Source of the DNA: Rhodothermales bacterium
GTDB lineage: Bacteria > Bacteroidota > Rhodothermia > Rhodothermales > Bin80
DNA length: 64,000 bases
Assembly (NCBI GenBank): GCA_965116685.1
Contig: OZ220707.1
Span: forward strand, 16,714 to 80,713
Reading direction: 5' to 3'
Program-made: the position numbers and the translations under genes
Shown here: piece by piece, positions 3,111-31,081 of the stretch
Layout of the letters: each line of letters starts with the position of its first letter
Numbering within the stretch: the stretch's first letter is position 1
Notes under the pieces: model-generated
Databases searched by the model: none
Seen by the model: the letters and a program-made list of their open reading frames with translations, nothing else
What the model was told of the DNA's origin: nothing

Positions 3111-6100
3111 TTACGCGAGGAGTGGCGCGGCTGCGTCAGTGCCACTCGGCAGCGGTTTCCGTTTGAAAAGTGACAACATGGCAACGGAAGCCAGAGGAGA
3201 CAGCAGTGTGGATGCCAGAAGCCCCGCCGTGACCGTGACGGCCAGACCAATCCAGAAATCATCATTATTTGGAAAAACCAGAAGGGGTAACATTGCAGCG
3301 CCACTGGTCAAGGTCGTTGTCCACATCGGACGCAACCGTTCACGAACCGCTAAGCGGGCCAGGATGGAAGACTTCCCATAGGGGCGGGCTAGTTGTAATT
3401 GCCGAAAGCGATCTGTCAAAAGAATACTGTCGTTCACGGCAATCCCGATCAGGAGTACACTTCCAATGAAGGCACCCTCCACGAAGCTGGCCTCGGTAAT
3501 TATGAAGCCGAGACAGACCCCCACCGCAGCCAGCGGAACGCTCAGCATGACGACCAGAGGCAGACGCCAGGACTCAAACACGGATGCAGTGACCAGAAAC
3601 ACAAGTAAGATGGTTGCTGCAAATACCCAACCGAAAGCGCGCTTGGTCTCTTCGGTGAAAAAGTAGTCATATCCACTCTCAATTCGATATCCGGGCGGAA
3701 TGGGAAACGTAGCCAGTGCATTTTCGATAAACCTCCGCCTCATGTCGAATGGGCCGCGAAAATCCACGCTGATCCGCCGTATATACTGTTGATCTTCCCG
3801 TTCGATTTCCGCCGCCATCTCAACGATTTTGTAATCAGCTACTCCTGCAAGTCTGAGAAGGGAGCTATCGCTGACCACCAGGGGGCGTTGCGTAATGCGG
3901 TCAATGTCAAGATTCGCGGCATTATTGATGATCAGGCGAATGGGGACCCGTGAATCTCCTGCTATATCGGCTCGCCAGCGTGGATGTGTCGTTTCGAAGT
4001 AAGGCCGCATGCGATGATTAATCCAGTAGGCATTCGCCCCCGTCCTTGCAGTCGCATCTGCAGTCCATTCAAATTGAAGTACTTGGCGGGCCTGGCTCCG
4101 GATCCATGAACTCCCCATCGCATTCAGGTCAACCCCTTGAACCCGGCGACTCTTACGTTTGACAAAGTCTCCAAATTGATGAACGAGCAAATCCAGATCT
4201 TCATAATTGGGGCCATACAGGCGTACGCTTGCTCCACCGATTCCCCCACCTCCTCCACTGTAATATCCTGTATCGGGAATAATTTCCCCCACGGATACGG
4301 ACATGCCTCCGAGTAAAATGGCGCGTCCAACCAATTTTCGCTGGAGAATGTAGGGACCAGGGGTCGTTAAGGAGCCTTTTTCGAACTCTATATTCAAGTA
4401 GGCATAGTCTTCACTGATCCTTACATCGGTTCGATAGACACTCTCTTCCGCTAAGGCCATCTGTTCAAAGTTCGCAATGAGAGAGTCGCTTCGCTCAATG
4501 GTATTTCCCTTGGGAAAGCTTAGTCTCACGTAGATGCTTTTGCGTTCAGGATAACTCCAGGGCTTATAGAAGGACACTGTTCGAAAGAAAGGCCGCAGGA
4601 CTCCGCCCGTCAGTGGGTCAATGTACTGTCTGCCAGTTTGGAGGATGGGAGCCCCCAACGAAGCATTATAGATATTGGCAAAACGCTCCTTGACATCGCT
4701 TGACCATCCTAATCGAGGCTCGTTAAATTGCATGGGGAGCTTCCATATTGGAACCCCAAGCAGTAAAATCAAGGCAACCAGCGTACTCTTGGGGAAGCGT
4801 GCAACCAGACGGTAGGGCATGGCAACGGCTCGCCTGAGCCATTTCCATTCTGGTTTTTCAACTTTTGGTGATAGGAAACGCACCACCACCGGCACAAAAG
4901 CGACTGCACTGATTAACGAGATCAGAAGTGTAATACTCACTAGGACCCCAAAAGGCAAAAACAAATCACGCAAATCTCCGCTCAAATAAACCAGCGGAAG
5001 CATGACCGCCATGGTACTCAATGTGCCGCCCAGAAGTGGTAGCCAGACCGCTTTCAAGGCTGCTTGTGTGCGTGCGACATGCAACTCCAGTCCTCGCATT
5101 CCGCGTGCAAGGAGTTTTTGCTGTTGTAAAAGGAGTTGTTCAACGACGACGACACTGTTGTCAATGAGGAGGCCAAACACCAGCACCAGTCCCGCAAGTG
5201 TAATGATGTTCAGAGATAGATCAAAGAACCTGAATAATGCGAGGGAAGGTGCAAGGGCTACGGCAACGCTGAATAGCACAATGACCGTTGCACGCACGCT
5301 TTTGAGCATGAAGAGCAGCACGAGGGTTACCAGGATGAGTCCGATTCCGCCACGTAAGGTCAAGTCATCCAGTAATTCCCGGACATTTTCGGTGCGATCC
5401 AAGACCACTAGCAGTCTCCCTCCTTCCGGCAGAGATTCTCGTATATCCTCAATTCGATCATAGACCGTCTCTGCAACATCGACAATATGAGACCCGCGAG
5501 TACGCTCCAGATCCAATGCCACTGCATTGAGTCCGTCAATACGCCGAATACTGAGGCGGGGCGCGGGGCCCAGTTTCAGGTTGGCAACCTGATCAAGACG
5601 GACAGGGAGCTCCCCAGGCCTGCTTTGGCTGACGATGATGGAAGATAGGCGATTTAGGTCGAGCTCCGGTCGATTCATCATCAGATGCCCTCTGCCCTGA
5701 GCATCCATTCGACCAAACACATGATCTTGCAATGATGAGCCCACCTGCTGCATCACATCGCCATATTCAATCCCGTAGGCATCAAGTCGGTCCGGTTCCA
5801 ATGAAATCAAAAGCTCACGTTCACTACCACCGGTAACCTCAACCAAATCAATGCCAGGCAAACTCTCGAATTTGGGTTTCAGGAGCTCATCGGCCGTTTT
5901 TCTGAGTTCATCTGGGCTATAGGGGCCGATCAGCCGTAAGGTCATAAATCCCTGAAGATCACGAAATGCTTCCGGAATTTCCTTGGTCAGACGGGGAGAA
6001 ACGTTTTCGGGCAGCCGATCTCTGAGTAGGGTCAGGTTTTCTCCAATCTGCGTACTGAAGGTGCCCAAGTCAACATCTTCATCCACCTGAATTTGTATAT

Positions 6101-6374
6101 GGGAACGACCTTCGGATGAGATACTGTTGATTTCAGCGATCCCGGGGACCGTTTGGATCTCGCGCTCAATGGGTGCAGTGATATATCTCTCCACTTGCCT
6201 TGGTGAGGCCCCCGGCCAAATCGCTGAAATACTCACACGGGGCAGTTCCGTATTGGGAGAGTATTCAATTGGAATATCCAGAGCAGCCCAGATCCCGGCG
6301 AGGACGATGGCAGTACACCAGGAAATCACAGCGATGGGTCGTTTAAGAAGACCTGCTGTACCCTTACTGAGCAT
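3111..6374 (-). CDS. RND efflux transporter permease (AcrB/HAE1-like)
   Basis: 1087-aa ORF with an N-terminal TM then a periplasmic loop (PRVSISAIWPGASPRQVE), two TM bundles (LIDNSVVVVE, AVNDSILL) and typical length. Confidence 0.85.
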   Translation of the reverse strand: MLSKGTAGLLKRPIAVISWCTAIVLAGIWAALDIPIEYSPNTELPRVSISAIWPGASPRQVERYITAPIEREIQTVPGIAEINSISSEGRSHIQIQVDEDVDLGTFSTQIGENLTLLRDRLPENVSPRLTKEIPEAFRDLQGFMTLRLIGPYSPDELRKTADELLKPKFESLPGIDLVEVTGGSERELLISLEPDRLDAYGIEYGDVMQQVGSSLQDHVFGRMDAQGRGHLMMNRPELDLNRLSSIIVSQSRPGELPVRLDQVANLKLGPAPRLSIRRIDGLNAVALDLERTRGSHIVDVAETVYDRIEDIRESLPEGGRLLVVLDRTENVRELLDDLTLRGGIGLILVTLVLLFMLKSVRATVIVLFSVAVALAPSLALFRFFDLSLNIITLAGLVLVFGLLIDNSVVVVEQLLLQQQKLLARGMRGLELHVARTQAALKAVWLPLLGGTLSTMAVMLPLVYLSGDLRDLFLPFGVLVSITLLISLISAVAFVPVVVRFLSPKVEKPEWKWLRRAVAMPYRLVARFPKSTLVALILLLGVPIWKLPMQFNEPRLGWSSDVKERFANIYNASLGAPILQTGRQYIDPLTGGVLRPFFRTVSFYKPWSYPERKSIYVRLSFPKGNTIERSDSLIANFEQMALAEESVYRTDVRISEDYAYLNIEFEKGSLTTPGPYILQRKLVGRAILLGGMSVSVGEIIPDTGYYSGGGGGIGGASVRLYGPNYEDLDLLVHQFGDFVKRKSRRVQGVDLNAMGSSWIRSQARQVLQFEWTADATARTGANAYWINHRMRPYFETTHPRWRADIAGDSRVPIRLIINNAANLDIDRITQRPLVVSDSSLLRLAGVADYKIVEMAAEIEREDQQYIRRISVDFRGPFDMRRRFIENALATFPIPPGYRIESGYDYFFTEETKRAFGWVFAATILLVFLVTASVFESWRLPLVVMLSVPLAAVGVCLGFIITEASFVEGAFIGSVLLIGIAVNDSILLTDRFRQLQLARPYGKSSILARLAVRERLRPMWTTTLTSGAAMLPLLVFPNNDDFWIGLAVTVTAGLLASTLLSPLASVAMLSLFKRKPLPSGTDAAAPLLA

Positions 6375-6546: not shown

Positions 6547-7821
6547 ATGGCGGATAGATCTCGTTCACCACGCAGGATTAAGCCATGGCACATTTTCGGT
6601 CTGATCTTGGCATTGGCGATAACCGGCCTGGTTTTATATGGAGTATGGCCTGCTGTCGTTGGCGAGGGAGTAGATGATGATCGGGAACTGACCGAGGAAC
6701 CGGAACCCGCACGTGCCCCCGTTGAAGTCCTGGTATTGGAACGGGGAGAATTTCCTCTCCGCGCAGAAGCGACCGGGCACCTGGCACCATGGCGTGAATC
6801 TAAAATCAGTGCGGAGGTCAGTGGGTTAATTCTTGATCGGCCGGTAGAAGAAGGGCAGCGTGTACATGCTGGTCAGGTTTTGATGCGTCTCAATGATCGT
6901 GAAACGAAAATTCGCCTGGCCGCAGCCGAAGCAGCTCTTCTGAAGGCACGCGCAGACTATGCAGTCCAAATCAGCAATGCCGGGGAGGTGGAAGCGGCGG
7001 ATACGACAAAGCTTGCAGATGCCAGAATCCGGTTGAAAACCGCGGAGGAGGCATTTGCATCAGGGTCAATCACACAGACGGAGCTTGATAATGTTCGTCG
7101 CCATTTCGAAGCGATGGATGTGTTGGCCGGGAATCAACGTGAAGCTGTAACGGCCGTGTATACCAATTTGACACAACAGGAACAAGAGGTAGAGCAGGCA
7201 CGCCTGCAATTGGAGCGTACCCAGGTCATTGCCCCCTTTAATGGCCGGGTTGCAGATCTTCAAGTGGAGGAGGGACAGCATGTTGGAGCGGGCGTTCATC
7301 TTCTCACGCTGCTTCAAGATGACCGGATGAAAGTATCGGTTGATGTTCTTGAGGGGGATCTGGTGCATGTTACTCCTGGGGTTACCGCGAATGTGATTGT
7401 GCCAAGCTACAGCGATGAAGTATTCCAGGGCTATGTGCATGCAGTGAATCCTTCCGTGGATCCCAAGACCGGTTCCGGGCGCATTACCGTAGCGCTTCGA
7501 AATCCAGGTGGTCGACTCGTTTCCGGCCTATATGCGGATGTAGCTCTGGAAACGAATCGTTTGCAGGATCGGATGGTTGCTCCATCTGAAGCGGTCATCG
7601 TTCGGCAAGGCAGGGAAGTTGTTTTTCTGGTCAAAGGAGGACGGTCGTACTGGATGTATGTGGTTGTGGGAGAGCGTTCTGGTAATTTCACGGAAATTAT
7701 TGGTGGGGATTCCCCCAGTGTTGTGGAGCCGGGAGACTCCCTGGTCGTCCAGGGAAACTATGCATTGGCACATGATGTCCCCGTAGAAGTCACTGGAGTG
7801 GTGGAGTTAGGGCTTCGTTAA
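6547..7821 (+). CDS. Efflux RND periplasmic adaptor (membrane fusion protein, HlyD family)
   Basis: N-terminal TM anchor, lipoyl-like segment (GQRVHAGQVLMRL), long coiled-coil, then APFNGRVADLQVEEGQHV. Sits immediately upstream of an RND permease. Confidence 0.82.
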   Translation: MADRSRSPRRIKPWHIFGLILALAITGLVLYGVWPAVVGEGVDDDRELTEEPEPARAPVEVLVLERGEFPLRAEATGHLAPWRESKISAEVSGLILDRPVEEGQRVHAGQVLMRLNDRETKIRLAAAEAALLKARADYAVQISNAGEVEAADTTKLADARIRLKTAEEAFASGSITQTELDNVRRHFEAMDVLAGNQREAVTAVYTNLTQQEQEVEQARLQLERTQVIAPFNGRVADLQVEEGQHVGAGVHLLTLLQDDRMKVSVDVLEGDLVHVTPGVTANVIVPSYSDEVFQGYVHAVNPSVDPKTGSGRITVALRNPGGRLVSGLYADVALETNRLQDRMVAPSEAVIVRQGREVVFLVKGGRSYWMYVVVGERSGNFTEIIGGDSPSVVEPGDSLVVQGNYALAHDVPVEVTGVVELGLR

Positions 7822-7854
7822 AGCTTTGCTTCACTGGTCTATCTTTGATCAGGT

Positions 7855-10800
7855 ATGAAAACCTTCATTGCTTCCTGCCTGAATCGTCCAGTTGCCGTTA
7901 CAGCATTCTATGCCCTTCTGCTGGTATTGGCAGTCGTTGCTTATGTGCGATTACCTGTGGCATTGCTCCCGGACTTGCGCTATCCTGGACTGGTAGTATG
8001 GACCAGCTATCCTGATGTACCACCAGACAGGGTCGAACGAGCGGTCACCGAGCGAATCGAACAAGCGGTTGCTGGAACGGCAGGCCTTACACGAGTAACG
8101 TCACGTACCTTGCTCGGGGGGAGTCTTGTGCATATGCAGTTTGGGTGGAATTCAAACCTGGATTTGGCGTTACTGGATGTACGGGAGAACCTGGATCGGC
8201 TGGGGGACATGTTTCCAAGAGAGGCATCAAGGCCCGCAGTCCTTCATCTTGATCCAGGGGATCGTCCCATTATGGTGATCGCACTTCGTAACAGAGCAGA
8301 GCAGCAAGGCAATGACCGCCCAGAGGACCTGGTTGAACTCAAGCGTGTTGGTCGGGATTTGATTGCACGCCGGTTAGAGCAGCTCAGCGACGTCGCACGG
8401 GTTCAGGTAACAGGAGGGTTTGAGCGTCGGATTGAGGTTGAGGTTGATCCGGATCAGATGATCGCGTATGGGATCAGCCTCAGCCAGATCGCAAGTGAGC
8501 TTGAAGGATCAAACGTAGCGCTGCAGGGGGGTGTCATTCGGCGTGGACCGTTCCGTTATCCGGTGGAGATCAGCGGAGAGTTCAAAGACACGGGGGATAT
8601 CGCTCAGACGGTCATTTCTACGCGGAACAACACACCAATCCGACTTCGGGACGTTGCTCAAGTGCGGGATGGGGTTGCGGAGCGGCGTGGGATGGTTCGA
8701 CTTGATGGTGCCGAAACACTGCTGCTGCTTGTTGAGCGTAAAGCAGATGCAAATATCGTTCGGGCAGTGGAAGAAATCCGTACGGTCCTGGCTGCATTGG
8801 AAGGAGAATATGAGCAGATTTCTCTGGAGGTCGTGGTTGATGAGAGTGAGTTTATTCAGGCAGCTATTGGAGGGGTGACGCAGGCCGTACTCTTGGGTGG
8901 GCTACTGGCCATCCTCGTTTTGTTTGCGTTCCTGAAGCGGCTGCGAGCTCTTTTGGCTGCCGCGGTGGCGGTCCCGCTCTCTATGGCAGTAACGCTAGTT
9001 TTTTTCGAGCCTCTGGATGTCACCTTCAATTTGATCTCGCTCAGTGGCCTGGCATTAGGCGCAGGGATGCTCGTTGATAATGCCATTGTTGTTATTGAAA
9101 ATATTGCCCGATTACGTGAGCAGGGGCAGTCGCCACTGCAGGCCGCACGTAATGGTGCTTCAGAGGTGGCAGGTGCGATTATCGCAAGTACACTAACTAC
9201 GATTGCGGTTTTCTTGCCGATCACACTGGTGGAAGGTCTAGCGGGTAGGCTCTTCAGAGACCAATCTCTGGCCGTTGTCTGTTCACTTTTGGCTTCGTTA
9301 CTCGTGGCGTTAACCGTGGTCCCGCTCATCGTGTCCCGTGAACGGCAGACCACTAATCAGCCCGTCCACAAGCTTGGTGCTAGATCAAGGCTGTTGCCTC
9401 GGTATGAGCAGGCTCTTTCATGGAGTCTGGATCATCGCTGGACCGTCATGATGTTCTGTGCTTTTTTACTCATGGGTGCTGGTTTATTGATTTCAAACCT
9501 GCCTCGCGAGGTGATTCCCGAGACGGAACAGGGGCGTGTAGATGTGCGGATTACGTTGCCGACCGATGCAGATTTAACCATGATAGCCTCGCGGGCCTCA
9601 GAGATTGAATCGCAGGCCAAAGCCAGGGGCTGGGCAGATCGAGTGCTTGCAGATTTGGGGGAGCGGGATCAAGCGCGCCTGGACCTGGATCCGCGTCCCC
9701 CCTACGAGGGTGACATTACTCTGTTATTGCCGCCAGGGCAAAACGCGGATGAAGTGCTATTGGCCATACAATCACTGGATTTGCCGGATGATGTCTCAAT
9801 CAAGGCGCAGCGTGTGGAAACACAATTAGAGCAGCTATTGGCCGTCAGTGATGCGGATCTGCTGATTGATCTGATAAGCGAAGATCGCCGCGATGCAGAA
9901 CAGGTTGTGGGGCGTGTCCATCAGTTATTGGAGGCACGCCCGGAATTGGTGAATGTACGACGTACGGATGCCGCTTCCGTGCCAACCTACCAGTTGACCT
10001 TCAATCGAGACATGATGAACCGTTATGGTGTCCATGCCAGAACATTGACCTCATATCTTGAGGCAGGTGCTCGGGGAAGTGAGGCTACGACCCTTAAAAC
10101 CGTGAATGAGGAGGTCCCGATCGTATTGCGCTCACGTCATATTGATTCAATTGAACGGCTGTTGTCCGAACAGATTCCTGCACGTGATGGCTTGATGCCC
10201 ATCGGGACCTTTGTTACAGCAGAGTCAATCTCATTGCCTGCCGCTCTCGTACGGGTGGAACAGTCTTCCGTGGTACGGCTCACTGCCGACATTGGACAGG
10301 GATATGATCTGGGGCGGGCAATGCGTGCAGTTACCGATGTGACAAGCAGAACATTGCCGATTACGGTACGCAGTCGAGTAGGCGGCTCTGTTGAGGTATT
10401 CCAGCAAAGCCTGTTTGGTGTAGCCCTGAGCCTGACACTGAGCTTATTGCTCGTATATCTGATTCTTGCAGCACAGTTCGAAAACCTGGTTCAGCCGCTT
10501 ATCATCCTGATCTCTGTACCTCTTGCGGCAGCGGGAGTTGCCTTTGTGCTTGGACTCACGGGGCAATCAATCAACCTGATGAGTCTCATGGGGACCGTGG
10601 TACTTGTTGGGATTGTGGTGAATGATGCAATTATCAAGACGGATTTCATCAATCAGCGGCGTGCCGCGGGCAGTCCGATCCGTGAGGCTATTATGGCTGC
10701 TGGGCATGATCGTGTGCGGCCGATTCTCATGACAACCATCACAACGGTTCTGGGACTGTTGCCCTTGGCGATGGGGTTTGGCCAGGGGGCAGAGCTGCGT

Positions 10801-19770: not shown

Positions 19771-22020
19771 GGGGCGGCGGGCTTTGTTCCTGAACCTCAA
19801 TCAGAGGTTTGACCGTTGGCGCAGGAACGGCCTCGACCGTGAACGGACCAGCAACTCGCGTCTTACTGCGGTCACGAAGCGGCTGATCATGTAAAACTGT
19901 CTGATTGGGTTGCTCGTCGTAACCCAAAATTTTTGGTGAGACGGTTTCAACACTGCGATAGTGAAATCCAGCTCCAACACCTTCATTTGGGTGTGCTAAT
20001 TCGTAATAGTCGTAAACAGCGGTTAGTAAGCGTTGTCTAGCAACGGCAATGGCTACTCGCGAGGTATCACAGGTAATCCACCTCCTGCCCCACTGTTCAG
20101 CAACATAGGCGGTCGTTCCACTACCACAGGTAGGGTCAAGGACCAAGTCTCCTGGGTCACTGGTCATTAGGATACAGCGCTGGATTGGCTTGATTGCAGT
20201 CTGAACTACATAACGCTTCTTCTGCTCAGACATTTGGGCTGCCCAGACGTTATTGATGGGTTTTCCGGGAATCTCCCCTTCATACCGCTTCCAGCAAAGC
20301 GTCTCCGCCCCCTCGGCGACATCAAAACGCCCCAATTCTGCAAGTCTATCCATCCCTTCTTTGGAAATTGACCAATGTCTATCCGGCGGGCAGGGGAATA
20401 TACGTCCGTTCCACTCATACGGCTCCGATCTACCCGTCGTTGAAGCTCCCTGTGAATCAAAGCTCCGCCGCTGATACATTCGTGCTCCCTCGGGCAAATA
20501 TTGATCTGGATCAAAACGTTCTTGGTCAGTTAGCTTCCGGCACGTTCCATCTGGAAGTTCGACCCTCGCATGCCAGCTAAATAGTTCGACTTTCTGCTTC
20601 CTGTCTAGTGGCTCATACAATCGCTTGCACTTTACCTTTTTCGCATCCCTCGCATACCAAAGAAGATAATCTGCAACTTGTGGTAGAGTTTTTGCCGAAC
20701 TCCCACTCGTAGTAGCATATGTGATGGTTGCGATCCGGTTTTCAGCTCCGAATATCTCGTCCATGACCATTCCCACACGGTGAATATTTTCATCACCAAT
20801 TTGCACAAAGCAGCTTCCGCTTTCGTGCAATAGATCGCGTGCTAACAGCAGCCGGTCACGAAGATACGCAAGGTATGAATGAATCCCAAGTTCCCATGTG
20901 TCACGAAATGCACGAATCTGTTCAGGTTCGGTCGTTAGATTTCTATCCTGATCTCCACCGGTAGGACTGTGTTGGTTAACAAAGGGCTGAAAATTGGAAC
21001 GATATCTAACCCCATAGGGCGGATCAATGTAGATGGTTTGTACTTTCCCGCCAAGCCCCTCCTTCTCCAATAAACTGTTCATCACCAACAAACCGTCGCC
21101 CGCAACTAGCCTGTTAGTCCAATTCTGTTGGTGTTTATAAAACTCAATCGCTTGGCGAATTGGTGGATTCTCTTCAGGTGCAGAAAATAAAGACAACTGC
21201 CCGCCGGGATCAGGTCGTTTCCGCACAGCCTCTACGATCGTTCGGGGATCAACTCGCTCATGGACATGAAGTGAGACGGTAGGAATTTCGAATGAAGTAC
21301 GTTCTTGCCTGCCAGCCCACTGCAGTTGTGGGTCCAAATGCGGGTCGTGCTCGTAGACTTTCTTTTCTTCCGCTCCATCAGTTTCTGGGGTAACCAGACC
21401 AACCGGTGGGTTATTCACCCGCTCTTTTCCTTGGTGCGTATAATGCTCAACTTGCCGCTGTTTCTTTTTCGATCGTCCCATCCTGTCACTATAAGTTGAA
21501 TCTGGTTATTCGATCTGTCATGTACCATATAATAGCTGAAAATGAGATTCTTTCAGGCTATATGCTCTCATTTCTGCATGCTTGGCCTATTGCCTAAAAT
21601 CAGTTACAACCTAGCAGTAGTAACCGATTGGAGGCAAATTCTAACTACTGTTATTGTACATGTTCCAAAAAGGTGGTACCAGCGTATGGAGTTCGTCAAT
21701 GTGTTAATGGGCTATTGGGCGTGGCTCGACCTCTTTCAGCACGATGGCGTTCCAACGATGACATTGATCGGAATTGATCCAGCGTTTGATTTTCCGTAAC
21801 AAATGGCTCACTTAAGCTATTGGGCTCCACCACGGAAATTATATCCAACAAATCAAGGCGCAACGTCCCAAAAGAGGATCTGAAGTGTAAGAAAAGTACG
21901 AAAAAAATAGCCCTTGCTGACCTTGGTGCCGTGCAAATTTTTGCTATTTTTGCAAAATGAAACAGAAGGAATGGAGGGGGAGTTGAGTATACTCGGAGCA
22001 AAGGGACTGTTTTATTGACT

Positions 22021-22599
22021 ATGAGGAATACAGAGAAATCAACTATTGAAGATTTTGTTGTCATTGCATACCTGCTCAAGAAGGCAGAGAAAGAAGGAAG
22101 AGGACTGACACCATTACAAGTCAACAAGTTGGTTTATATCTGCCATGGGTGGGCATTGGGAAAGTTGAACCGACCACTGATTGATAATCGCTCGGGCCAA
22201 ATAGAGGCATGGAAATATGGTCCGGTGGTCCGGGGGGTGTACGACCGCCTGAAAGACTGGCAGGCAAAGGAGGTTACTTATAATTCTTTCTGCGAAAAAT
22301 TTGGCTCATACGGACTTGGCAAAGAACAGGCAAAGGAGTTTCTTTCTGGGGAGATAGCTGATCTTGAGGAGAAAGATCCTCAAATATGCAGATTATTGGA
22401 TGTGGTTTGGTACGTGTACAAAGATCTGACCGGGGGGCAGCTAATCACCATAACGCACAAGGAAGAAACTCCATGGCAAAAGCATGTGAAGTATGGGATG
22501 TTTCGCCGAGTAGTCCATGGAGTACATATTCCTGATTCAACGATAGCTGAGCATTATCAGATTAAGTTGGCAGACACACCGTCGCTATCTGATGTCTGA
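22021..22599 (+). CDS. Panacea/DUF4065 (SocA-like) antitoxin-domain protein
   Basis: LTPLQVNKLVYICHGWALGKLNRPLIDNRSGQIEAWKYGPVVRGVY follows the DUF4065 signature (LQKLLY..qGw.L...g.pLf.e.feAWkyGPVvp.vY). The ATG at 22021 is preferred over the TTG at 22015. Confidence 0.75.
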   Translation: MRNTEKSTIEDFVVIAYLLKKAEKEGRGLTPLQVNKLVYICHGWALGKLNRPLIDNRSGQIEAWKYGPVVRGVYDRLKDWQAKEVTYNSFCEKFGSYGLGKEQAKEFLSGEIADLEEKDPQICRLLDVVWYVYKDLTGGQLITITHKEETPWQKHVKYGMFRRVVHGVHIPDSTIAEHYQIKLADTPSLSDV

Positions 22600-22894
22600 A
22601 ATAACGCCATCGATGTCAGAGGGATTTGAGAGGTTTCGTGAAAAGGCCCTACCTGATACTCCCCCTAAGGGAGCCAAAGCAGACACGTTGACTCCACCCC
22701 AACACTGGACTACTCAAATCTATGAAGATGAGTACAAACCTTTACCCCGATGGGTCAAGTCTGACATCAGATACGGGATTCTTCTTCTGGCATTCTTTAT
22801 TGCCGTGAATCATGGCTCCAGACACGTACGAAGTTCATTGTGCCAGTGGGGATGGCAAAATTTCTGTGAGATAGAGCAAGTACGTTCCGAATAA
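22592..22894 (+). CDS. Small hypothetical protein with one predicted TM helix (candidate PanA-associated toxin)
   Basis: 100-aa ORF whose ATG overlaps the panA-like stop by 8 nt (ATGTCTGA). Hydrophobic stretch IRYGILLLAFFIAVNHG. No family recognised. Confidence 0.45.
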   Translation: MSEITPSMSEGFERFREKALPDTPPKGAKADTLTPPQHWTTQIYEDEYKPLPRWVKSDIRYGILLLAFFIAVNHGSRHVRSSLCQWGWQNFCEIEQVRSE

Positions 22895-23264
22895 TCTCGT
22901 TTTCCGGTATCGGAATTTTTTAATAGAATACGGTTATAGTATATGATGAAACAGGCTGGATGCCTTGAGTCAAGAACTGGTGAACAGGTTCCCCTGAAGT
23001 CATCATCCTGTTGATCGCCTGCTTCAGACCAATTTCGCGGCTATGGGATATTAGATGATCCGATCGCAAATCCTCATTATGGGAGGATTTTACATTGGGG
23101 AGGTGCTTCTGTTTATGAGGAAACCAAGTAAATCCAAACCTCCAGCCCGCTACCCCGAGAATAGGTTACAGCTTGGCATATAACTCCCAATTTTATATCC
23201 TGTCAGACAGTCTCTAAACAGAGCAGTAAGAATTTCCAGTTTGACCTTAAATACTTCTAAAAGG

Positions 23265-24743: not shown

Positions 24744-26106
24744 CGGATTCAATTGATCCCCGCCTGAATTCCCGGGAAGTTCAGCTATAAACGAAAATCA
24801 TACACCTTCGGCCACAAGTTAGGGGACTCATTGGCACGGGCCATGAAAATGGGGGTATGCAGAAAATCACAAAAATACAAGAGATAATTTCTGTTTCAGC
24901 GTTATTGTATCTCCGGCTTCGATGGTTCATCAAATGGGGTGGTCGCGTGCTGGGAATGCAGATATCGCATCTGGAACCGCGGCATTCTGTGATCTGTTCA
25001 CTAGGGTAGTGTGTGTGCATTTCGACTGGCTGAACCCATTATCTCATGGCTATGCGTAAATCCCGGCATTCCGCTTCCCCTCCACTGACAGCAACGTTTG
25101 ATCGAGGCCCGGCGAAATATTTTCATGGGCGGAAAGAGATATTGACCAATTTTAATGAGCTTATAGAGAAGTCGGTGCAGGCGAAGTCGGGTACTATCTT
25201 TCTGATTCAAGGTGCCCCTGGTGCAGGGAAAAGTGCTCTGATGTATGAATGTGAGAGACAAGCAATAGATAGTGGATGGAAGGCTGTGAGGATGTCCGCG
25301 CGTGCCTTCTGGGATCCAGACAAATTGCGCCGAATCCTTGGGTTAGGGAAAATTCCCATAATTATAGGCGGAGCAGCAGAAATCAGCGTAGGTCCTTTTG
25401 CCAAGGGTGGGATTACAGTCGGGAAGGCCTCGCCTGAAACAGTGGATATTCTTAAGAGCGTAAAGCAGCCACTGCTGCTCAAGCTAGATGAAGCGCAAAC
25501 GCTGGGAACAACCAACACGCCCCCGCCTGACCAAGCCGGGACTGTAACCGAGACGCTGAATGAGATTCATAACGGCGAATTGAACTGGCCTGTCATTTTG
25601 GTCGCGGCGGGTTTGGAAACGACAGCGAAGGCCTTTGCGTCACTTGGAATTTCGAGGTTTTCGGGAAAATACTTTGTGGAATTGGGAACGTTGGAAAAGG
25701 AGTCTGAGCACGCGGTAATTCATGACTGGCTCACGAAGGAAGGCGGGGCGAAAGGAGATCCCGCGGAATGGATTGATGTTATTGCCCAAGAAACGCATGG
25801 CTGGCCGCAGCACATCTTATCGTATGTAGTGTCTGTCCCGGAATACCAGAACATCCTTAAAATGTGCCCTGTAGGCCTCCTACGGCCGCTTTTTGGCGTA
25901 ATCCTCTAGATTTTTCCTCCACGAGTTTCGAAAGCCCCCTCGGTGGTGGGCGATTTTCAGGAAACTCCACAATCCTGGTAAAAACTCGTACTGGAGGTCT
26001 TCAAAGACGGTTTTTTCTCTGAATTCATCCTTCAGATTTTCGATTCAAACCTGGCTCTGGGGAGTATAATGGAGAAATTGCCTGCCATCTTCAATTTTTT
26101 TTTGCT

Positions 26107-29100
26107 ATGAGAAAAGTGTATGACAATCAATTATCCATTGACACCATTCCCATGGAGAACATCAAGCTTGACCCGCGCGGCCGGCAGGCAGCTGAAGGTT
26201 TTCTGTATGGGATTCGAGAGATTTTCCTGGACGACCAGACCCGAGTGAAGCTGATGGCTCTTTTGGAGTCGTATCAACCGGGCAACCGTAAAAAGTTGGG
26301 GCGGTGCGCCAGGCTAACTGGTAAAATGTAGCGGGTGGAAGTCCCGTAGTATGAAGATGCAACCAGTTTAACCAATCACATACTTCCTCGAGCCGTGCGT
26401 TGTGCCCCGCGAGGGTCACGACGAAGCGTCGGCAGAGGTGCGTATGGCCGGAGCTATCGAGCATCGAAATCGTTATTATTTGAGTCGCCGAGGCGGTCGT
26501 CCCAGTCGAAGGCAACACGTAATCCATCGTCATGGTGAGACGGATTACGGGCTCACGGTGTCAAAGAACTCATGGACATACGTACGCATTTTGTCGGGAC
26601 CTGGGAGGTCTCCATCTTATCCTGTAGTCGTACAGGATTGCTTAGAGAAGGCGGAAGACGCCATAGCCTAAGATAGACGGGATGGAGAAGTCAGATAGAG
26701 ACATAGTAGCAATGAGGACAGCGAACAAGGAACCATCTGCGGAGCTGTTGGAGCGAAGGTCTCTACCCGAGGGGAATCTGGGAGATCCTACCACACACCA
26801 TGCGCAGAAATGGGCAAGTGTGCACCAGGGGATTGAGCGGATACGGGAAGTCGTACAACGGAACCCGAAGGAGAAACTTACAACGCTCTTGCACCACATC
26901 AGCGTGAAATCACTGACGGCGGCGTTTTTCGCATTAAAGCGAGAAGCGTCACCTGGGGTGGACAACGTGACGTGGGAGGAGTATAGCGTGGACTTGGACC
27001 GCAACCTTGCGGATCTCTGCACACGAGTACACCGTGGATCGTTTCGAGCGACCCCCAGCAGACGGGTAAATATACCCAAGCCTGATGGGGGCACACGACC
27101 GCTCGGGATCGCAGCTTTGGAGGATAAGATCGTCCAGACCGCGATGGTAAAATGTATTTTAGAGCCCATTTATGAAAATGAGTTCTGCGGGTTCAGCTAT
27201 GGATTCAGGCCGGGGCGCAGTGCCCATGATGCTTTGGATGCCTTAGCGTATGTGATCGAACGCCGGAAAGTAAATTTCGTGGTAGATGCGGACATTCGCA
27301 AATTCTTTGATCAGGTAGATCAGAAGTGGCTCATGCGCTTTCTTCGACACCGGATCGGAGACGAGCGAGTATTACGGATCATCATGAAGTTTCTAAAGGC
27401 GGGGGTGATGGAGGATGGAAGTTTACGGGACAGCGAGCTGGGTACGCCACAAGGTGCAGTCATCTCACCAATCCTGGCGAACATCTATCTTCACTATGTG
27501 CTGGATCTATGGTTTAGAGTCCAGCGCAAATCACGAAACATTGGCGGGGAGTCGTACATCGTCCGATATGCGGACGATTTCGTGGTCTGTTTCCAGTACA
27601 AGGCGGCGGCAGAACGTTTTCTACAAGATCTTCGGGCTCGGCTGGAGAAATTCGGTTTAAGCCTGCACCCTGACAAAACCCGTCTCATAGAGTTTGGACG
27701 TTTTGCAGAAGAAGGCTGTAAGAAGCGTAGAGAAAGCCGTCCCAAGACGTTTGACTTTCTGGGTTTTACACACTATTGTCGTAAGACACGGAAGGGGCGT
27801 TTTGGGTTAGGTCGCAAGCCAATTGCGAAGCGCATGGCGCGCTTTGTGATGCGTATTTATGTGGAGCTTCGGAAACGGATGCACCATTCGGTGCATCAAA
27901 CGGGGAAATGGCTTGGACAGGTGCTCAATGGGTGGCTGAATTATTACGCGGTACCATTGAGTATGCCGTATCTACAGAGGTGCTATGATCGTCTAAAACG
28001 AATTTGGTTGCGCGTACTACGTCGCCGATCCCAACGGGATCGAACGACCTGGGAGCAACTGTATGCGTTAATAGAACGCTATTGGCCGAAACTGACCATT
28101 CGCCACGACTGGCCGACAAGACGAATGACCGTTAGGCATGTCGATGCAACCCAAGGGAGGAGCCGGATGCGTTAACGCGCTCGTCCGGATCTGTGCGGGG
28201 GGCCCAGGGAAACCTGGGTCCCTACCGCGATTCGTGGGATGAGTATGTGGTGCATGATCGTTTTGGCCGGCTTAAAGCAAGCGATGAACTGTAGCTACGA
28301 CATGTTAGCCTTTTTGGCAAATCATGCGGATGTGGTGCGACAGGTGCTGAGACATGGCGCGGGCGATACGACGCGTTATACTCGTTCCACTCTCCATGCG
28401 AACCTATCGGAGTTGCCCCCCGAATTGCTGATGAAGGTCAATCAATTGGTGGTTGAATTTGGACACCGGATGGTGGGCACGAAACGGGGCGAGACGCTCA
28501 AGTGTCGGTGCGACTCAAAACCGGTGAAGACCAATATCCGTTTTCCAACCGATCTCCTCTTGCTCTGGGATTCGACCCGTTGTCTGATTCGTATCTGTGC
28601 GAAGGTCGCCAAACGATTCGGGCTGGAGGGTTGGCGGCAACACGCCGATCTTCGCGAGAAGGTCTACGAGAAGTATCAGGGCGCTCGAAAAGGGAAGAAG
28701 GGGGACTACAAAATGAAGCAGGTTCGCCGCTATCGGAGCAAATGTCGTCAGGTGTCGAAAAAAGCGCTAATACTCCTGGATGCGATAGAGAAGAAGATTT
28801 TGGCCTGTCCCAAAGAAGATTCGTCCACTTTGCAGGAACTATTTGAAGCAAAACAGGAAATGAATCTGTATTTAGAGTACCTTGAACGATTTTCCGACCA
28901 GATTCGGCGCCGCATCCTTAAAGGGCAGCAGATTCCGACCCATGAGAAAATCTATTCCATCTTCAAGCCCTTCACGCGATGGATCGTTAAGGGGAAGATG
29001 GGCATCCTGTGCGAGTTGGGGGTCCCGGTTGCGGTCGTGGAGGATTCGAATCAATTTATTTTAGGCTATGGGATTGTTTGGGAGGGGACGGACAAGGATA

Positions 29101-29516
29101 TTGCGGTTCCCCTGGTGGAGGCCATTGAGGCCCAGTATCCCGGGATCGTCATGAGTTGCTCGTATGACCGGGCGTTTTACAGTCCAGCGGTACGTGAGCA
29201 GTTGGACGAAAAGCTGGCGGTCGCGGCCATGCCAAAGAAAGGAAAGCGGACGAAAGAGGAACGAGAACGCCAAAATGATCCGGCCTACCAAGCCGCTCGG
29301 AAGGGACATTCGGGGATCGAATCCTGCCTGAACCATCTCAACAAACGGGGCTTGGATCTGGTGCGTGAGACCAGCGCGCAGAGCTTTGAACGTGTGGTGG
29401 CAACCTCGGTATTGGCTGCGAATATTATCCGGTTGGGAACGCTGATTCGAGAACAGGAACGAAAGCGTCTCAAACGTCTGGCCAAGCAACGCAGGCGATT
29501 GCGTCTCGCGGCGTAG
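26107..29516 (+). CDS. DDE transposase split by a group II intron (exon 1 26107-26303, exon 2 28232-29516; 493 aa if spliced)
   Basis: Exon 1 ends ...KKLGR(cg) and exon 2 starts (t)RGMSMWCMIVLAGLK. The join is in frame (197+1285=1482 nt). Exon 2 carries CDSKPVKTNIRFPTDLLLL, typical of IS4/IS5-superfamily DDE enzymes. Confidence 0.7.
26304..28231 (+). mobile_element. Full-length bacterial group II intron (1928 bp)
   Basis: 5' GTGCGCC. Domain V-like hairpin 28160-28191 (GAGCCGGAU...GUCCGGAUC). Domain VI 28195-28228 has a GAAA loop and a bulged A at 28224, 7 nt from the 3' end (...CGCGAT). An RT/maturase ORF lies inside. Confidence 0.85.
26682..28175 (+). CDS. Group II intron reverse transcriptase/maturase (no obvious HNH endonuclease domain)
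   Basis: RVNIPKPDGGTRPLGIAALEDKIVQ, SYGFRPGRSAHDAL, TPQGAVISPILANIYL, IVRYADDFVVCF, and an X/maturase-like LNGWLNYY. Confidence 0.9.
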   Translation: MEKSDRDIVAMRTANKEPSAELLERRSLPEGNLGDPTTHHAQKWASVHQGIERIREVVQRNPKEKLTTLLHHISVKSLTAAFFALKREASPGVDNVTWEEYSVDLDRNLADLCTRVHRGSFRATPSRRVNIPKPDGGTRPLGIAALEDKIVQTAMVKCILEPIYENEFCGFSYGFRPGRSAHDALDALAYVIERRKVNFVVDADIRKFFDQVDQKWLMRFLRHRIGDERVLRIIMKFLKAGVMEDGSLRDSELGTPQGAVISPILANIYLHYVLDLWFRVQRKSRNIGGESYIVRYADDFVVCFQYKAAAERFLQDLRARLEKFGLSLHPDKTRLIEFGRFAEEGCKKRRESRPKTFDFLGFTHYCRKTRKGRFGLGRKPIAKRMARFVMRIYVELRKRMHHSVHQTGKWLGQVLNGWLNYYAVPLSMPYLQRCYDRLKRIWLRVLRRRSQRDRTTWEQLYALIERYWPKLTIRHDWPTRRMTVRHVDATQGRSRMR

Positions 29517-29816
29517 CCAACCCACTCATTCAGGAAAGAAAATCAAGTGCTCATCTGGGCGGATTGGGGCAGTATGTCCAGGAGACACGAAATAGCACGC
29601 CGACGCCTCATCCAGTGCTCCCCAATCGTCTCATCTACGACTACTCCCACCAAAAAATAAAAAAGTTTCAACTGAAAATGAGGAAAATTTCCCAAGGTCT
29701 CGGAACAGATACCGCGCGAGGGTACTTTCTGGACGGACACTATGTAGATCCGGCGGTGCGTTATTTACGAGACAATTATGGTGTGATGAACGCAGACGGG
29801 TTGAATATCGTCTTGG

Positions 29817-30462
29817 GAGCGCCAGGCTAACTGGCAAAATGTAACGGGTGCAAGTCCCGTAGTATGAAGATGCAACCAATCACATACTTCCTCGAGCCGT
29901 GCGTTGTGCCCCGCGAGGGTCACGACGAAGCGTCGGTAGAGGTGCGTGTGGCCGGAGCTATAGAGCATCGAAATCGTTATCGTCTGGGTCGCCGAGGCTG
30001 TCCAAGTGGTCGAAGGCAACATGTATGTCACCGCCATGGCGAGGCGGCATACAGGCCCACGGTGTCTAAGAACTCAGGGACATATGTACGCATTTTGTCG
30101 GGACCTGTGAGGGCTCTATCCTGTCCTAAACGCAGAGTTGGGATCGCGCAGGGAAGGCGGAAGACGCCGAAGCCTGCGATGCACGGGATGGAGCAGTCAG
30201 ATGGGGACATAGTAGTGAAGAAGGCGGCGAACAAGGGGCGACCTGCGGAGTCGCTGGAGCGAAGGTCCCCACCCAAGGGGAAGCTGGGAGATCCGGGCTC
30301 ACGCCATACACAGAGATGGATCAGTGAGTTTATGGGATCAATCGGCTACGGCAATTCTGCCGTTATGCACGCCGGTGCGACCCGAGGGAGGAGCCGGATG
30401 CGTTAACGCGCACGTCCGGATCTGTGCGGGGGGCCCGGAGCAATCCGGGTCCCTACCGCGAT
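29817..30462 (+). mobile_element. ORF-less (RT-deleted) group II intron derivative, 646 bp
   Basis: Its 5' ~370 nt and 3' ~90 nt align with 26304-26680 and 28140-28231 of the full intron, including the domain V/VI hairpins. Only ~50 N-terminal and ~10 C-terminal RT codons remain. The 5' end reads GAGCG instead of GTGCG. Confidence 0.8.
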
Positions 30463-31081
30463 AAGCAGGGCGCCGATTTCGATCAGATTACTACAAACAA
30501 CGAGTAGATGATTTTCGTGGAGATCAGATCCGATGCCTGGCAAGCTCAATTGCGGGCACTCCACCAAGTGAACCTGTTGAGTATAAAGATATTATGTTAT
30601 CACTTAAGGAGGAATATAGCGCCAGCGAGGCGGAGCAACTGTTTCAACGCTTTCGGGAAAAGGGGGTACTGTGGAAGTGGGGGATAGGGTATGCCGTTCC
30701 GATCCCCTCTATGCATAATTGGCTAGTGAATGAATACGCCCCTACCTAGATTCAATTTCCCCATCAGACGGTGTGGCTTCGTGGAAGGGAACAGGAGCAG
30801 AGATAGGGCGGTAAGTGCCCCATTTTCATCCAAATATAGGATGGTATTTCCTTGTCCGAAGTAGATATTTCCTCTCCACGCCGCTGATAAACGAGCGGTA
30901 TTCCCAGTAGAGGTGCTGGGCGGAGTGATTTGCTGGATGTATAATTTTTCTCCATTGGTCCATAAAAATCAGCCCCCCAGAATTCAGAACTGGTGATTAC
31001 GACTCTGAGCCGTCCCCCTCAATATTCAGATATTGATATTAGTACGTAGTTTAGACCTTGGAGTCACGCAAGAACAGGACC

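Follow-up and report, generated by a model that had tools for sequence, protein, structure and literature searches.

A Panacea gene and its unannotated small partner: a candidate toxin–antitoxin cassette in uncultured Rhodothermales

Our subject is a pair of overlapping genes in a 64,000-nucleotide stretch of a Rhodothermales bacterium (GenBank assembly GCA_965116685.1, contig OZ220707.1, positions 16,714 to 80,713), which we call the window and within which all unqualified coordinates are given. The first, a panA-like gene on the plus strand (22021–22599), encodes a standalone Panacea (DUF4065/SocA-like) protein of 192 amino acids. The second, gene B, also on the plus strand (22592–22894), encodes 100 amino acids and is a candidate PanT-like toxin, the founder of a small unannotated family. 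We are confident that, judged by their sequences and surroundings, the two form a Panacea-partner cassette. With less assurance, we favour reading 21921–22921 as a bicistronic toxin–antitoxin cassette of the PanAT type, running from a promoter through panA and the overlapping B to a terminator, in which PanA would be the antitoxin and B would belong to a new cluster of PanT-like toxins. We hold to a similar degree that B is probably a toxin neutralised by PanA; on its acting at the membrane we are evenly divided. The original prediction, made from the nucleotide sequence alone, had suggested such a pair, a Panacea gene coupled to an unrecognised small partner that was likely to be a new PanT, and both the Panacea domain and the adjacency to PanA in unrelated neighbourhoods bear it out. 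It had also appealed to Panacea proteins paired with small membrane toxins, and these are indeed an established class (PMC8832971).

The panA-like gene begins with an ATG at 22021, with an alternative TTG start upstream at 22015, and stops at 22597–22599. In a hidden Markov model (HMM) search its product scores 64 bits (E 2.9e-17) for the Pfam family PF13274 (SocA_Panacea), whose gathering cutoff is 25.7, the match spanning residues 35–153 of the protein and positions 2–113 of the 113 in the profile. The EAWKYGPVV signature by which the gene was first recognised occupies residues 62–70. PHROG 1281 matches as well (E 2e-33), and the NCBIfam model SocA_antitoxin (NF047745) scores 87.9 bits, under its equivalog cutoff of 190. 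Panacea is the sole domain that Pfam finds; there is no accessory N-terminal domain and no DNA-binding domain, and Pfam, NCBIfam and PADLOC hold no recognisable effector domain for the protein. Sequence and profile searches of the PDB gave chance-level matches only, for PanA and B alike. The PanA proteins linked to B stand apart as a clade: some 30 clusters have 56% identity or more, and the next sequences, across a gap, reach 44% at most. They are about 190 amino acids long and share the invariant motifs NKLxYICHGW, QIxAWKYGPV, GGxLIxxTH..xTPW and IPD. Cys-His and Thr-His motifs are also invariant across the clade. Pairwise ratios of nonsynonymous to synonymous substitution (dN/dS) lie mostly between 0.09 and 0.17, which indicates purifying selection on PanA.

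Gene B starts inside panA, with an ATG at 22592, and ends with a stop codon at 22892–22894. As described beforehand, its start lies 8 nucleotides before the end of the upstream gene: the shared segment (22592–22599, plus strand) is exactly ATGTCTGA, and this overlap translationally couples panA and B. The peptide strings attributed to the product, IRYGILLLAFFIAVNHG and SLCQWGWQNFCE, are all present. Calling the protein unrecognised was correct too, for it has no match in Pfam, NCBIfam, PADLOC or PHROGs at E values up to 1 or 0.1. Relatives exist nonetheless among environmental sequences. Among 5.8 billion proteins, a word-indexed search brought up just five clusters homologous to B, at 58–89% identity, and a HMMER profile search of 1.84 billion representative proteins found 13 matches, nine of them below 1e-10. 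All genome matches are metagenome-assembled genomes (MAGs) labelled Rhodothermales or Rhodothermaceae. The B family is small, sharply delimited and confined to uncultured Rhodothermales. IMG/VR, a phage collection and the plasmids of PLSDB contain no homologue, so a phage or plasmid origin is unsupported. Pairwise dN/dS for B runs from 0.13 to 0.50, typically 0.25–0.40, values that identify it as a genuine gene on which purifying selection acts. Scanning with Rfam turned up no RNA family within the cassette or close to it, and hence no evidence for an RNA antitoxin of type I or type III.

What links B to PanA is the company it keeps. We read the contexts of the window copy and of P0001–P0010, P0013 and P0018, and reached a second copy in L028 through the family HMM; the PanA clade extends beyond these contexts to members that include P0027, P0028, P0032, P0041 and P0044. 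Each context read shows a Panacea gene immediately before B on the same strand, the two genes sharing 8, 4 or 1 nucleotides. This is the reverse of what the original prediction had named as its refutation, homologues of the small gene that never adjoin Panacea or other antitoxin genes. The 8-nucleotide overlap recurs in L001, L002, L005, L011, L013, L021, L022, L026 and the second pair of L028; it is 4 nucleotides in L024 and L027, and 1 nucleotide in L019 and the first pair of L028. For P0007 the upstream gene is represented on its contig by the C-terminal 73 residues, which are clearly PanA. Altogether the pair occupies at least 13 distinct loci in Rhodothermales MAGs and metagenomes, with B proteins 27–90% and PanA proteins 35–97% identical. 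Among the placed family members there is no intact B without PanA, and we found no natural fusion of the two. Kurata 2022 (PMC8832971) recognised PanAT pairs by a gap of at most 100 nucleotides, conservation in at least two species and the absence of a longer conserved operon (at most three genes). PanA–B falls within these bounds, with a gap of −8 nucleotides, at least 13 loci and flanks that differ between loci. The partnership is reciprocal as well: placed intact B members all sit downstream of PanA, and the lone orphan copy is a pseudogene.

The genes on either side change from one locus to another. In the window, L001 and L015 they are type III-like Mod/Res genes and an aldehyde dehydrogenase gene; in L002, L003 and L016, genes for a UvrD-like helicase, DarT and an ADP-ribosylglycohydrolase; in L005–L010, McrBC; in L024, SIR2 and AAA_15/UvrD; and in L027, genes for ZorA-like and EH_signature proteins. 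Three GmrSD genes stand between two PanA–B pairs in L028, IS1595 and IS21 elements accompany the pair in L026, and L013, L014 and L022 have housekeeping genes beside it. MFS and aminotransferase genes are among the other flanking genes. Neighbourhoods so unrelated imply that PanA–B moves as a two-gene unit, often landing in defence islands. L028 is a single metagenome contig that carries two divergent PanA–B pairs, at 3426–4393 (plus strand) and 7565–8393 (minus strand), around genes of the GmrSD type IV restriction class.

Panacea genes in related DNA have other partners. A metagenome scan with the PanA profile returned four loci, among them one PanA–B pair and two distant PanAs with an unrelated partner that has two transmembrane helices. 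In those two loci (L033, 2986–3825; L034, 55–1038) the PanAs (30–32% identity) are followed within a few nucleotides by unrelated proteins of 128–169 amino acids, each with a charged N-terminal half and two clear transmembrane helices, which makes them a different membrane PanT-like family. Comparison of B with this partner by hhalign gave no homology (probability 0.3%). On plasmid pSR56 of Salinibacter ruber M8 (L035, 1420–2821), a SocA/Panacea gene at 32% identity overlaps a hypothetical gene of 300 amino acids by 14 nucleotides: yet another Panacea partner, this time in a cultured member of the Rhodothermales.

The manner in which B is lost adds a further line of evidence. On the complete Rhodothermales chromosome of L018, PanA is intact, and some 150 nucleotides inserted in frame past roughly codon 36 interrupt B and bring stop codons with them. 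L019 likewise keeps PanA whole; its B (5893–6201) retains the usual overlapping start, and codon 18 is a nonsense codon. L020 holds the only B-like sequence with no PanA upstream (195–488), and it contains an in-frame TGA; the 194 nucleotides between its start and the contig end hold no PanA remnant. The pseudogenes are thus two copies linked to PanA and one orphan. Loss of B with PanA kept, inactivity of the orphan B and the lack of any intact lone B together make the asymmetry that a poison–antidote pair predicts, a pattern that here rests on three inactivated copies, a small number. The insertion in L018 (in the copy at 5713–6195) is possibly a small mobile element.

What sort of protein is B? 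In the family alignment, some 30 variable residues at the N-terminus are followed by a conserved block (W-x-x-Q-I-Y-E-x-E-Y-K-P-L-P), then by a hydrophobic helix and finally by a conserved tail. AlphaFold2 (AF2), run with 6 and then with 15 sequences, returned predicted local distance difference test (pLDDT) scores of 63.6 and 66.9 and predicted template modelling (pTM) scores of 0.25 and 0.30, and in neither run did it predict a compact globular fold. With 15 sequences it leaves the N-terminus disordered, places a helix at residues 39–48 over YEDEY, and predicts one long helix over residues 53–85 (22748–22846, plus strand, as are all segments of B) at a pLDDT of 77–90. The pre-helix segment, residues 39–52 (22706–22747, WTTQIYEDEYKPLP), is hydrophilic and conserved; it includes YEDEYKPLP, is invariant in close members and is the best-conserved N-terminal block of the wider family. 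We propose it as the region to which PanA may bind, with YEDEYKPLP as the likeliest site by analogy with the PanA:PanT_D11 pair of B. choladocola. Inside the long helix lies an apolar core, YGILLLAFFIAV (residues 61–72, 22772–22807), with a basic amphipathic stretch before it and NHGSRH after it. The uncharged core measures exactly 12 residues in 14 of the 15 members, bounded by K or R on its N side and by N or D on its C side, and across the family the helix varies in sequence and keeps its hydrophobicity. The tail carries the motif (N/D)(H/Y)G(S/T)xH.(R/Q)S..CQW(G)...(F)C, with its Cys pair at C84 and C92 in the window copy (CQWGWQNFC, 22841–22867) and a C-x6-13-C spacing over the family. 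Every complete member has both Cys. A71, C84 and Q85 are invariant, and at least 90% of members keep P52, H78, W86 and C92. We also considered a His/Cys zinc site (H74/H78/C84/C92) and have downgraded it: P0009 has neither His and keeps the Cys pair.

The helix is probably transmembrane, although the case is a borderline one and the crude measures pull in different directions. Wimley–White octanol energies over 19-residue segments favour insertion in all B members (−2.6 to −8.7 kcal/mol), and Kyte–Doolittle maxima over 19 residues range from 1.1 to 2.5. Lys and Arg number 3–5 in the N-terminal flank of the helix versus 0–2 in the C-terminal flank, the N-terminal count being the higher in all 15 members, and a hydrophilic N-terminus of about 50 residues precedes the helix with no signal peptide. 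This asymmetry, taken with the missing signal peptide, favours an N-in/C-out orientation. The conserved Cys pair would then be periplasmic, and a disulfide loop between C84 and C92 is plausible.

From these features we would picture the system as follows. B would be a small N-in/C-out membrane protein whose N-terminal 50 or so residues, YEDEYKPLP included, stay in the cytoplasm, whose long helix with its short apolar core enters the inner membrane, and whose Cys-pair tail reaches the periplasm. Free B, probably oligomeric, may disturb or depolarise the membrane, which is the likeliest activity in view of the PanTs already validated from E. coli, B. apis and Helicobacter. PanA, made first and in excess by virtue of translational coupling, would bind the cytoplasmic N-terminal or pre-helix region of B and so keep it off the membrane or inactive. 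The cassette would travel among Rhodothermales as a two-gene unit with a preference for defence islands, which would fit a role in addiction or abortive infection.

Several observations weigh against this picture. Only 9 of 25 candidate pairs tested were validated in E. coli (Kurata 2022, PMC8832971), so conserved adjacency alone is no guarantee of a working toxin–antitoxin pair. The relative conservation of the two proteins is a second difficulty. PanA identity is 58–84% where the cognate B proteins share just 27–67%, and dN/dS is about 0.1 for PanA against about 0.3 for B. Antitoxins usually evolve faster than their toxins, and here the pattern is reversed. This hints that PanA may be under constraint beyond that of binding B, and it is compatible with the sensing role proposed for Panacea over and above toxin binding. 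A third difficulty lies in the helix. An apolar core of 12 residues is too short to span a bilayer alone, so part of the span would need to come from the W-[IVL]-K-x-x-[IV]-[KR] stretch before it. The Kyte–Doolittle maximum of the window copy, 1.43, is borderline, a crude unweighted sum on the Hessa (translocon) scale is positive for the B members (+0.2 to +7.4), and P0004 carries an Arg and a Ser within the core. The single transmembrane helix foreseen in the original prediction is thus half upheld: one long helix is predicted (53–85) and its octanol energies are favourable, and the core length, the Hessa sum and the Kyte–Doolittle value sit uneasily with it.

The strength of selection on PanA is the natural starting point for a different account, in which the pair is a conserved module that does not arrest growth. 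B would be a non-toxic bitopic anchor or sensor, its periplasmic Cys-loop tail reporting on the envelope, and would tether or regulate PanA; as sensor or effector, PanA would be the partner that dominates the working of a defence or stress module. The far greater constraint on PanA, its clade-wide invariant motifs and the conserved CQW...C tail of B, predicted to be extracytoplasmic, would all suit such an arrangement. So would the proposal of Ernits 2023 (PMC10440598) that Panacea is primarily a sensor, and the many candidate PanTs that proved non-toxic or were not neutralised in E. coli (PMC8832971). Against these stand the pseudogenes, whose pattern is expected of a toxin but is no specific expectation of a harmless anchor. 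No effector domain is recognisable in PanA, and overlapping genes with the antitoxin leading are how toxin–antitoxin pairs are classically laid out. We regard the anchor or sensor as unlikely.

Alternatively, B might be a toxin that is soluble and never enters a membrane, for example one that blocks a cytoplasmic target, with the helix buried as an oligomerisation or PanA-binding element and H78, C84 and C92 forming a metal site. The brevity of the core, with charges on both sides, the Arg that P0004 tolerates there, the positive Hessa sum and the conservation of H78, C84 and C92 in at least 90% of members could be so explained. AF2, however, offers a single 33-residue helix and no compact fold (pTM 0.25–0.30). 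The helix varies freely in sequence yet stays hydrophobic, as lipid-facing segments do, and the octanol energies favour insertion in every member. The Lys/Arg asymmetry is consistent in all 15, and the copy that has lost both candidate His ligands, P0009, retains its Cys pair. A soluble toxin is, we think, distinctly unlikely.

Bolder, and highly unlikely in our judgement, is the notion that PanA–B is a membrane-coupled sensor–effector unit of defence islands and not a simple poison–antidote module. The periplasmic disulfide loop of B (CQWGW..FC) could then sense envelope or phage-entry events, and PanA could act in the cytoplasm as the switch by which B is released or activated. If this were true, it would supply the first concrete input signal for the hypothesis of Panacea as a sensor. 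Least probable of all is a SocAB-like type VI arrangement in which PanA, as a proteolytic adaptor, delivers B to a housekeeping protease with no sequestration: the best NCBIfam match of PanA is SocA_antitoxin and Panacea is the domain of SocA, but the score falls far under the equivalog cutoff, B resembles no family described in Pfam or NCBIfam, SocB included, and in the PanAT pairs assayed to date the two proteins are joined in stable complexes, in keeping with type II (PMC8832971).

We return to the PanAT cassette and to the DNA that bounds it. Primary-sigma promoters of the Bacteroidota follow the consensus TTTG-N19-21-TAnnTTTG, as described in the Bacteroides and Flavobacterium literature. 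A promoter-like element of this type lies at 21921–21952 on the plus strand, with CTTG at 21921–21924, a spacer of 19 nucleotides and TATTTTTG at 21945–21952, a match to TAnnTTTG. Transcripts begun from this element would carry a leader of roughly 60 nucleotides. In the closest relatives, L001 and L015, whose PanA is 97% identical, the −33 element is an exact TTTG and stands 18–19 nucleotides upstream of the same TATTTTTG. There is no site of the sigma-70-type consensus upstream of PanA. Homology to the syntenic L001 and L015 resumes exactly at 21923–21930. Before that point, some 195 nucleotides of the window (21735–21929) differ from the matching 48–62 nucleotides of those loci, an indel or replacement whose end coincides exactly with the cassette's start.

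Within the spacer and the −7 box of this element sits the 23-nucleotide palindrome and direct repeat TGCAAATTTTTGCTATTTTTGCA (21932–21954), which had been put forward as a possible operator. It is present, and the window has no other TGCAAA-N5-17-TTTGCA match. Shuffled windows yield 0.19 such matches each, and 18 of 100 shuffles contain at least one, so by itself the occurrence does not exceed chance. The left arm reads CGCAAT in L001 and TGCAAT in L015, and the rest of the 23-mer is unchanged, right arm and TTTTTGC repeat included; more distant loci have different upstream DNA, in which a TTTGCA(c)AAATG block of loose similarity is all that is shared. We have rejected the operator reading in view of the altered arm in the closest relatives, its absence from other loci, the chance-level occurrence and the lack of a DNA-binding domain in PanA. 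Ernits et al. 2023 (PMC10440598) likewise consider Panacea probably not a transcriptional autoregulator. The region 21921–21952 is better read as a putative promoter of the Bacteroidota type. At the other end, 8 nucleotides past the B stop, TTCCGGTATCGGAA followed by TTTTTT forms a hairpin that resembles an intrinsic terminator (22902–22921, plus strand). The 35 or so nucleotides after B are partly conserved in other loci, and the hairpin is clear only in the window and the L001 group. The promoter-like element and the terminator-like hairpin together would make 21921–22921 a self-contained bicistronic cassette.

The window has other features of note around the pair. A dead restriction–modification system had been placed next to it, and the description is plausible. 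A Mod-type methylase gene (19730–21481, minus strand) is followed by a ResIII region split into several open reading frames (ORFs), of 290, 665 and 216 amino acids in the window (14128–17812, minus strand) and of 249, 531 and 250 amino acids in L015 (186–3215). The restriction half looks decayed, which would probably leave the methylase an orphan. An IS110-family insertion of 1.97 kb (17801–19770; transposase ORF 18140–19441, minus strand), missing from the syntenic MAG locus L015, lies about 20 nucleotides before the Mod stop and alters just its last few residues. We considered whether the 290-residue ORF at 16940–17812 is a Mod C-terminus split off by IS110 and rejected it; in L015, which is free of the insertion sequence, Mod also ends at about that point. 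Elsewhere, a 6.28-kb segment (24758–31036) is missing from L001, where the aldehyde dehydrogenase gene directly precedes a BNR/sortilin-like gene. The segment contains an AAA_16 ORF (25046–25909), a reverse-transcriptase ORF (26682–28175) and two group II intron D1–D4 RNAs (RF02005, at 26338–26570 and 29851–30074). On the plus strand at 11549–13912, an ORF of 787 amino acids brings together Druantia DruA-like, Tnp_DNA_bind and DDE_Tnp_1 domains, an unusual combination.

Why should one more small pair matter? The principle would not change, small membrane PanT toxins being already experimentally established. What PanA–B would add is an apparently unclassified partner family for the hyperpromiscuous Panacea antitoxin network, and an extension of that network into uncultured Rhodothermales. 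It would also be a compact test case for how a standalone Panacea protein neutralises a membrane-acting peptide and for why PanA is better conserved than its toxin, a value it owes to a small and delimited family, a strict partnership with PanA, a very short apolar core and a tail whose Cys loop is conserved.

How does the pair compare with systems already known? SocAB, the type VI system of Caulobacter whose SocA is the founding Panacea protein, has the antitoxin domain PF13274 in common with PanA. Membership fails on both components: PanA falls below the SocA equivalog cutoff (NF047745, 87.9 < 190), and B, which has no SocB-like match at E ≤1 in NCBIfam or Pfam, is unrelated to SocB in size and features. 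Other small toxins that depolarise membranes, RmrT_D5 of RosmerTA (PMC10440598) and the type I toxins Hok and TisB, have in common with B the membrane action we propose for it and residence in defence islands. They bear no sequence relationship to B, and their antitoxins are of other kinds, a helix-turn-helix/peptidase protein in RosmerTA and antisense RNA for Hok and TisB, in contrast to the Panacea protein here.

Closest are the PanAT pairs with a small membrane PanT: T3 of E. coli STEC O31, T12 of Bartonella apis, the Helicobacter sp. pair and PanT_D11 of B. choladocola (PMC8832971, PMC10440598). Kurata 2022 (PMC8832971) validated three membrane-depolarising PanTs, from E. coli, B. apis and Helicobacter, and predicted 'many' small transmembrane ones; the same study found antitoxin-first order the commoner in PanAT, 943 versus 325. 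PanA–B differs from these pairs in several ways. B has a single and unusually short apolar core rather than one or two clear transmembrane regions, and its conserved Cys-pair tail sets it apart from T3, T12 and D11 as these have been described. Members of the family come solely from uncultured Rhodothermales, whereas a single Rhodothermaceae PanA, its neighbour not conserved, appears in the data of Kurata 2022. Set beside other PanAT antitoxins, the PanA clade, at about 190 amino acids, is unusually well conserved. The likenesses are nevertheless extensive. Both have a standalone Panacea antitoxin, antitoxin-first order, overlapping genes and a patchy, mobile distribution, and in B as in the small membrane PanTs a hydrophilic or charged N-terminal part leads into a hydrophobic helix. 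The standalone Panacea protein of B. choladocola neutralises the transmembrane toxin PanT_D11 by way of the unstructured N-terminal region and short pre-transmembrane helix of the toxin (Ernits 2023, PMC10440598), and by analogy PanA may neutralise B through its own pre-helix region.

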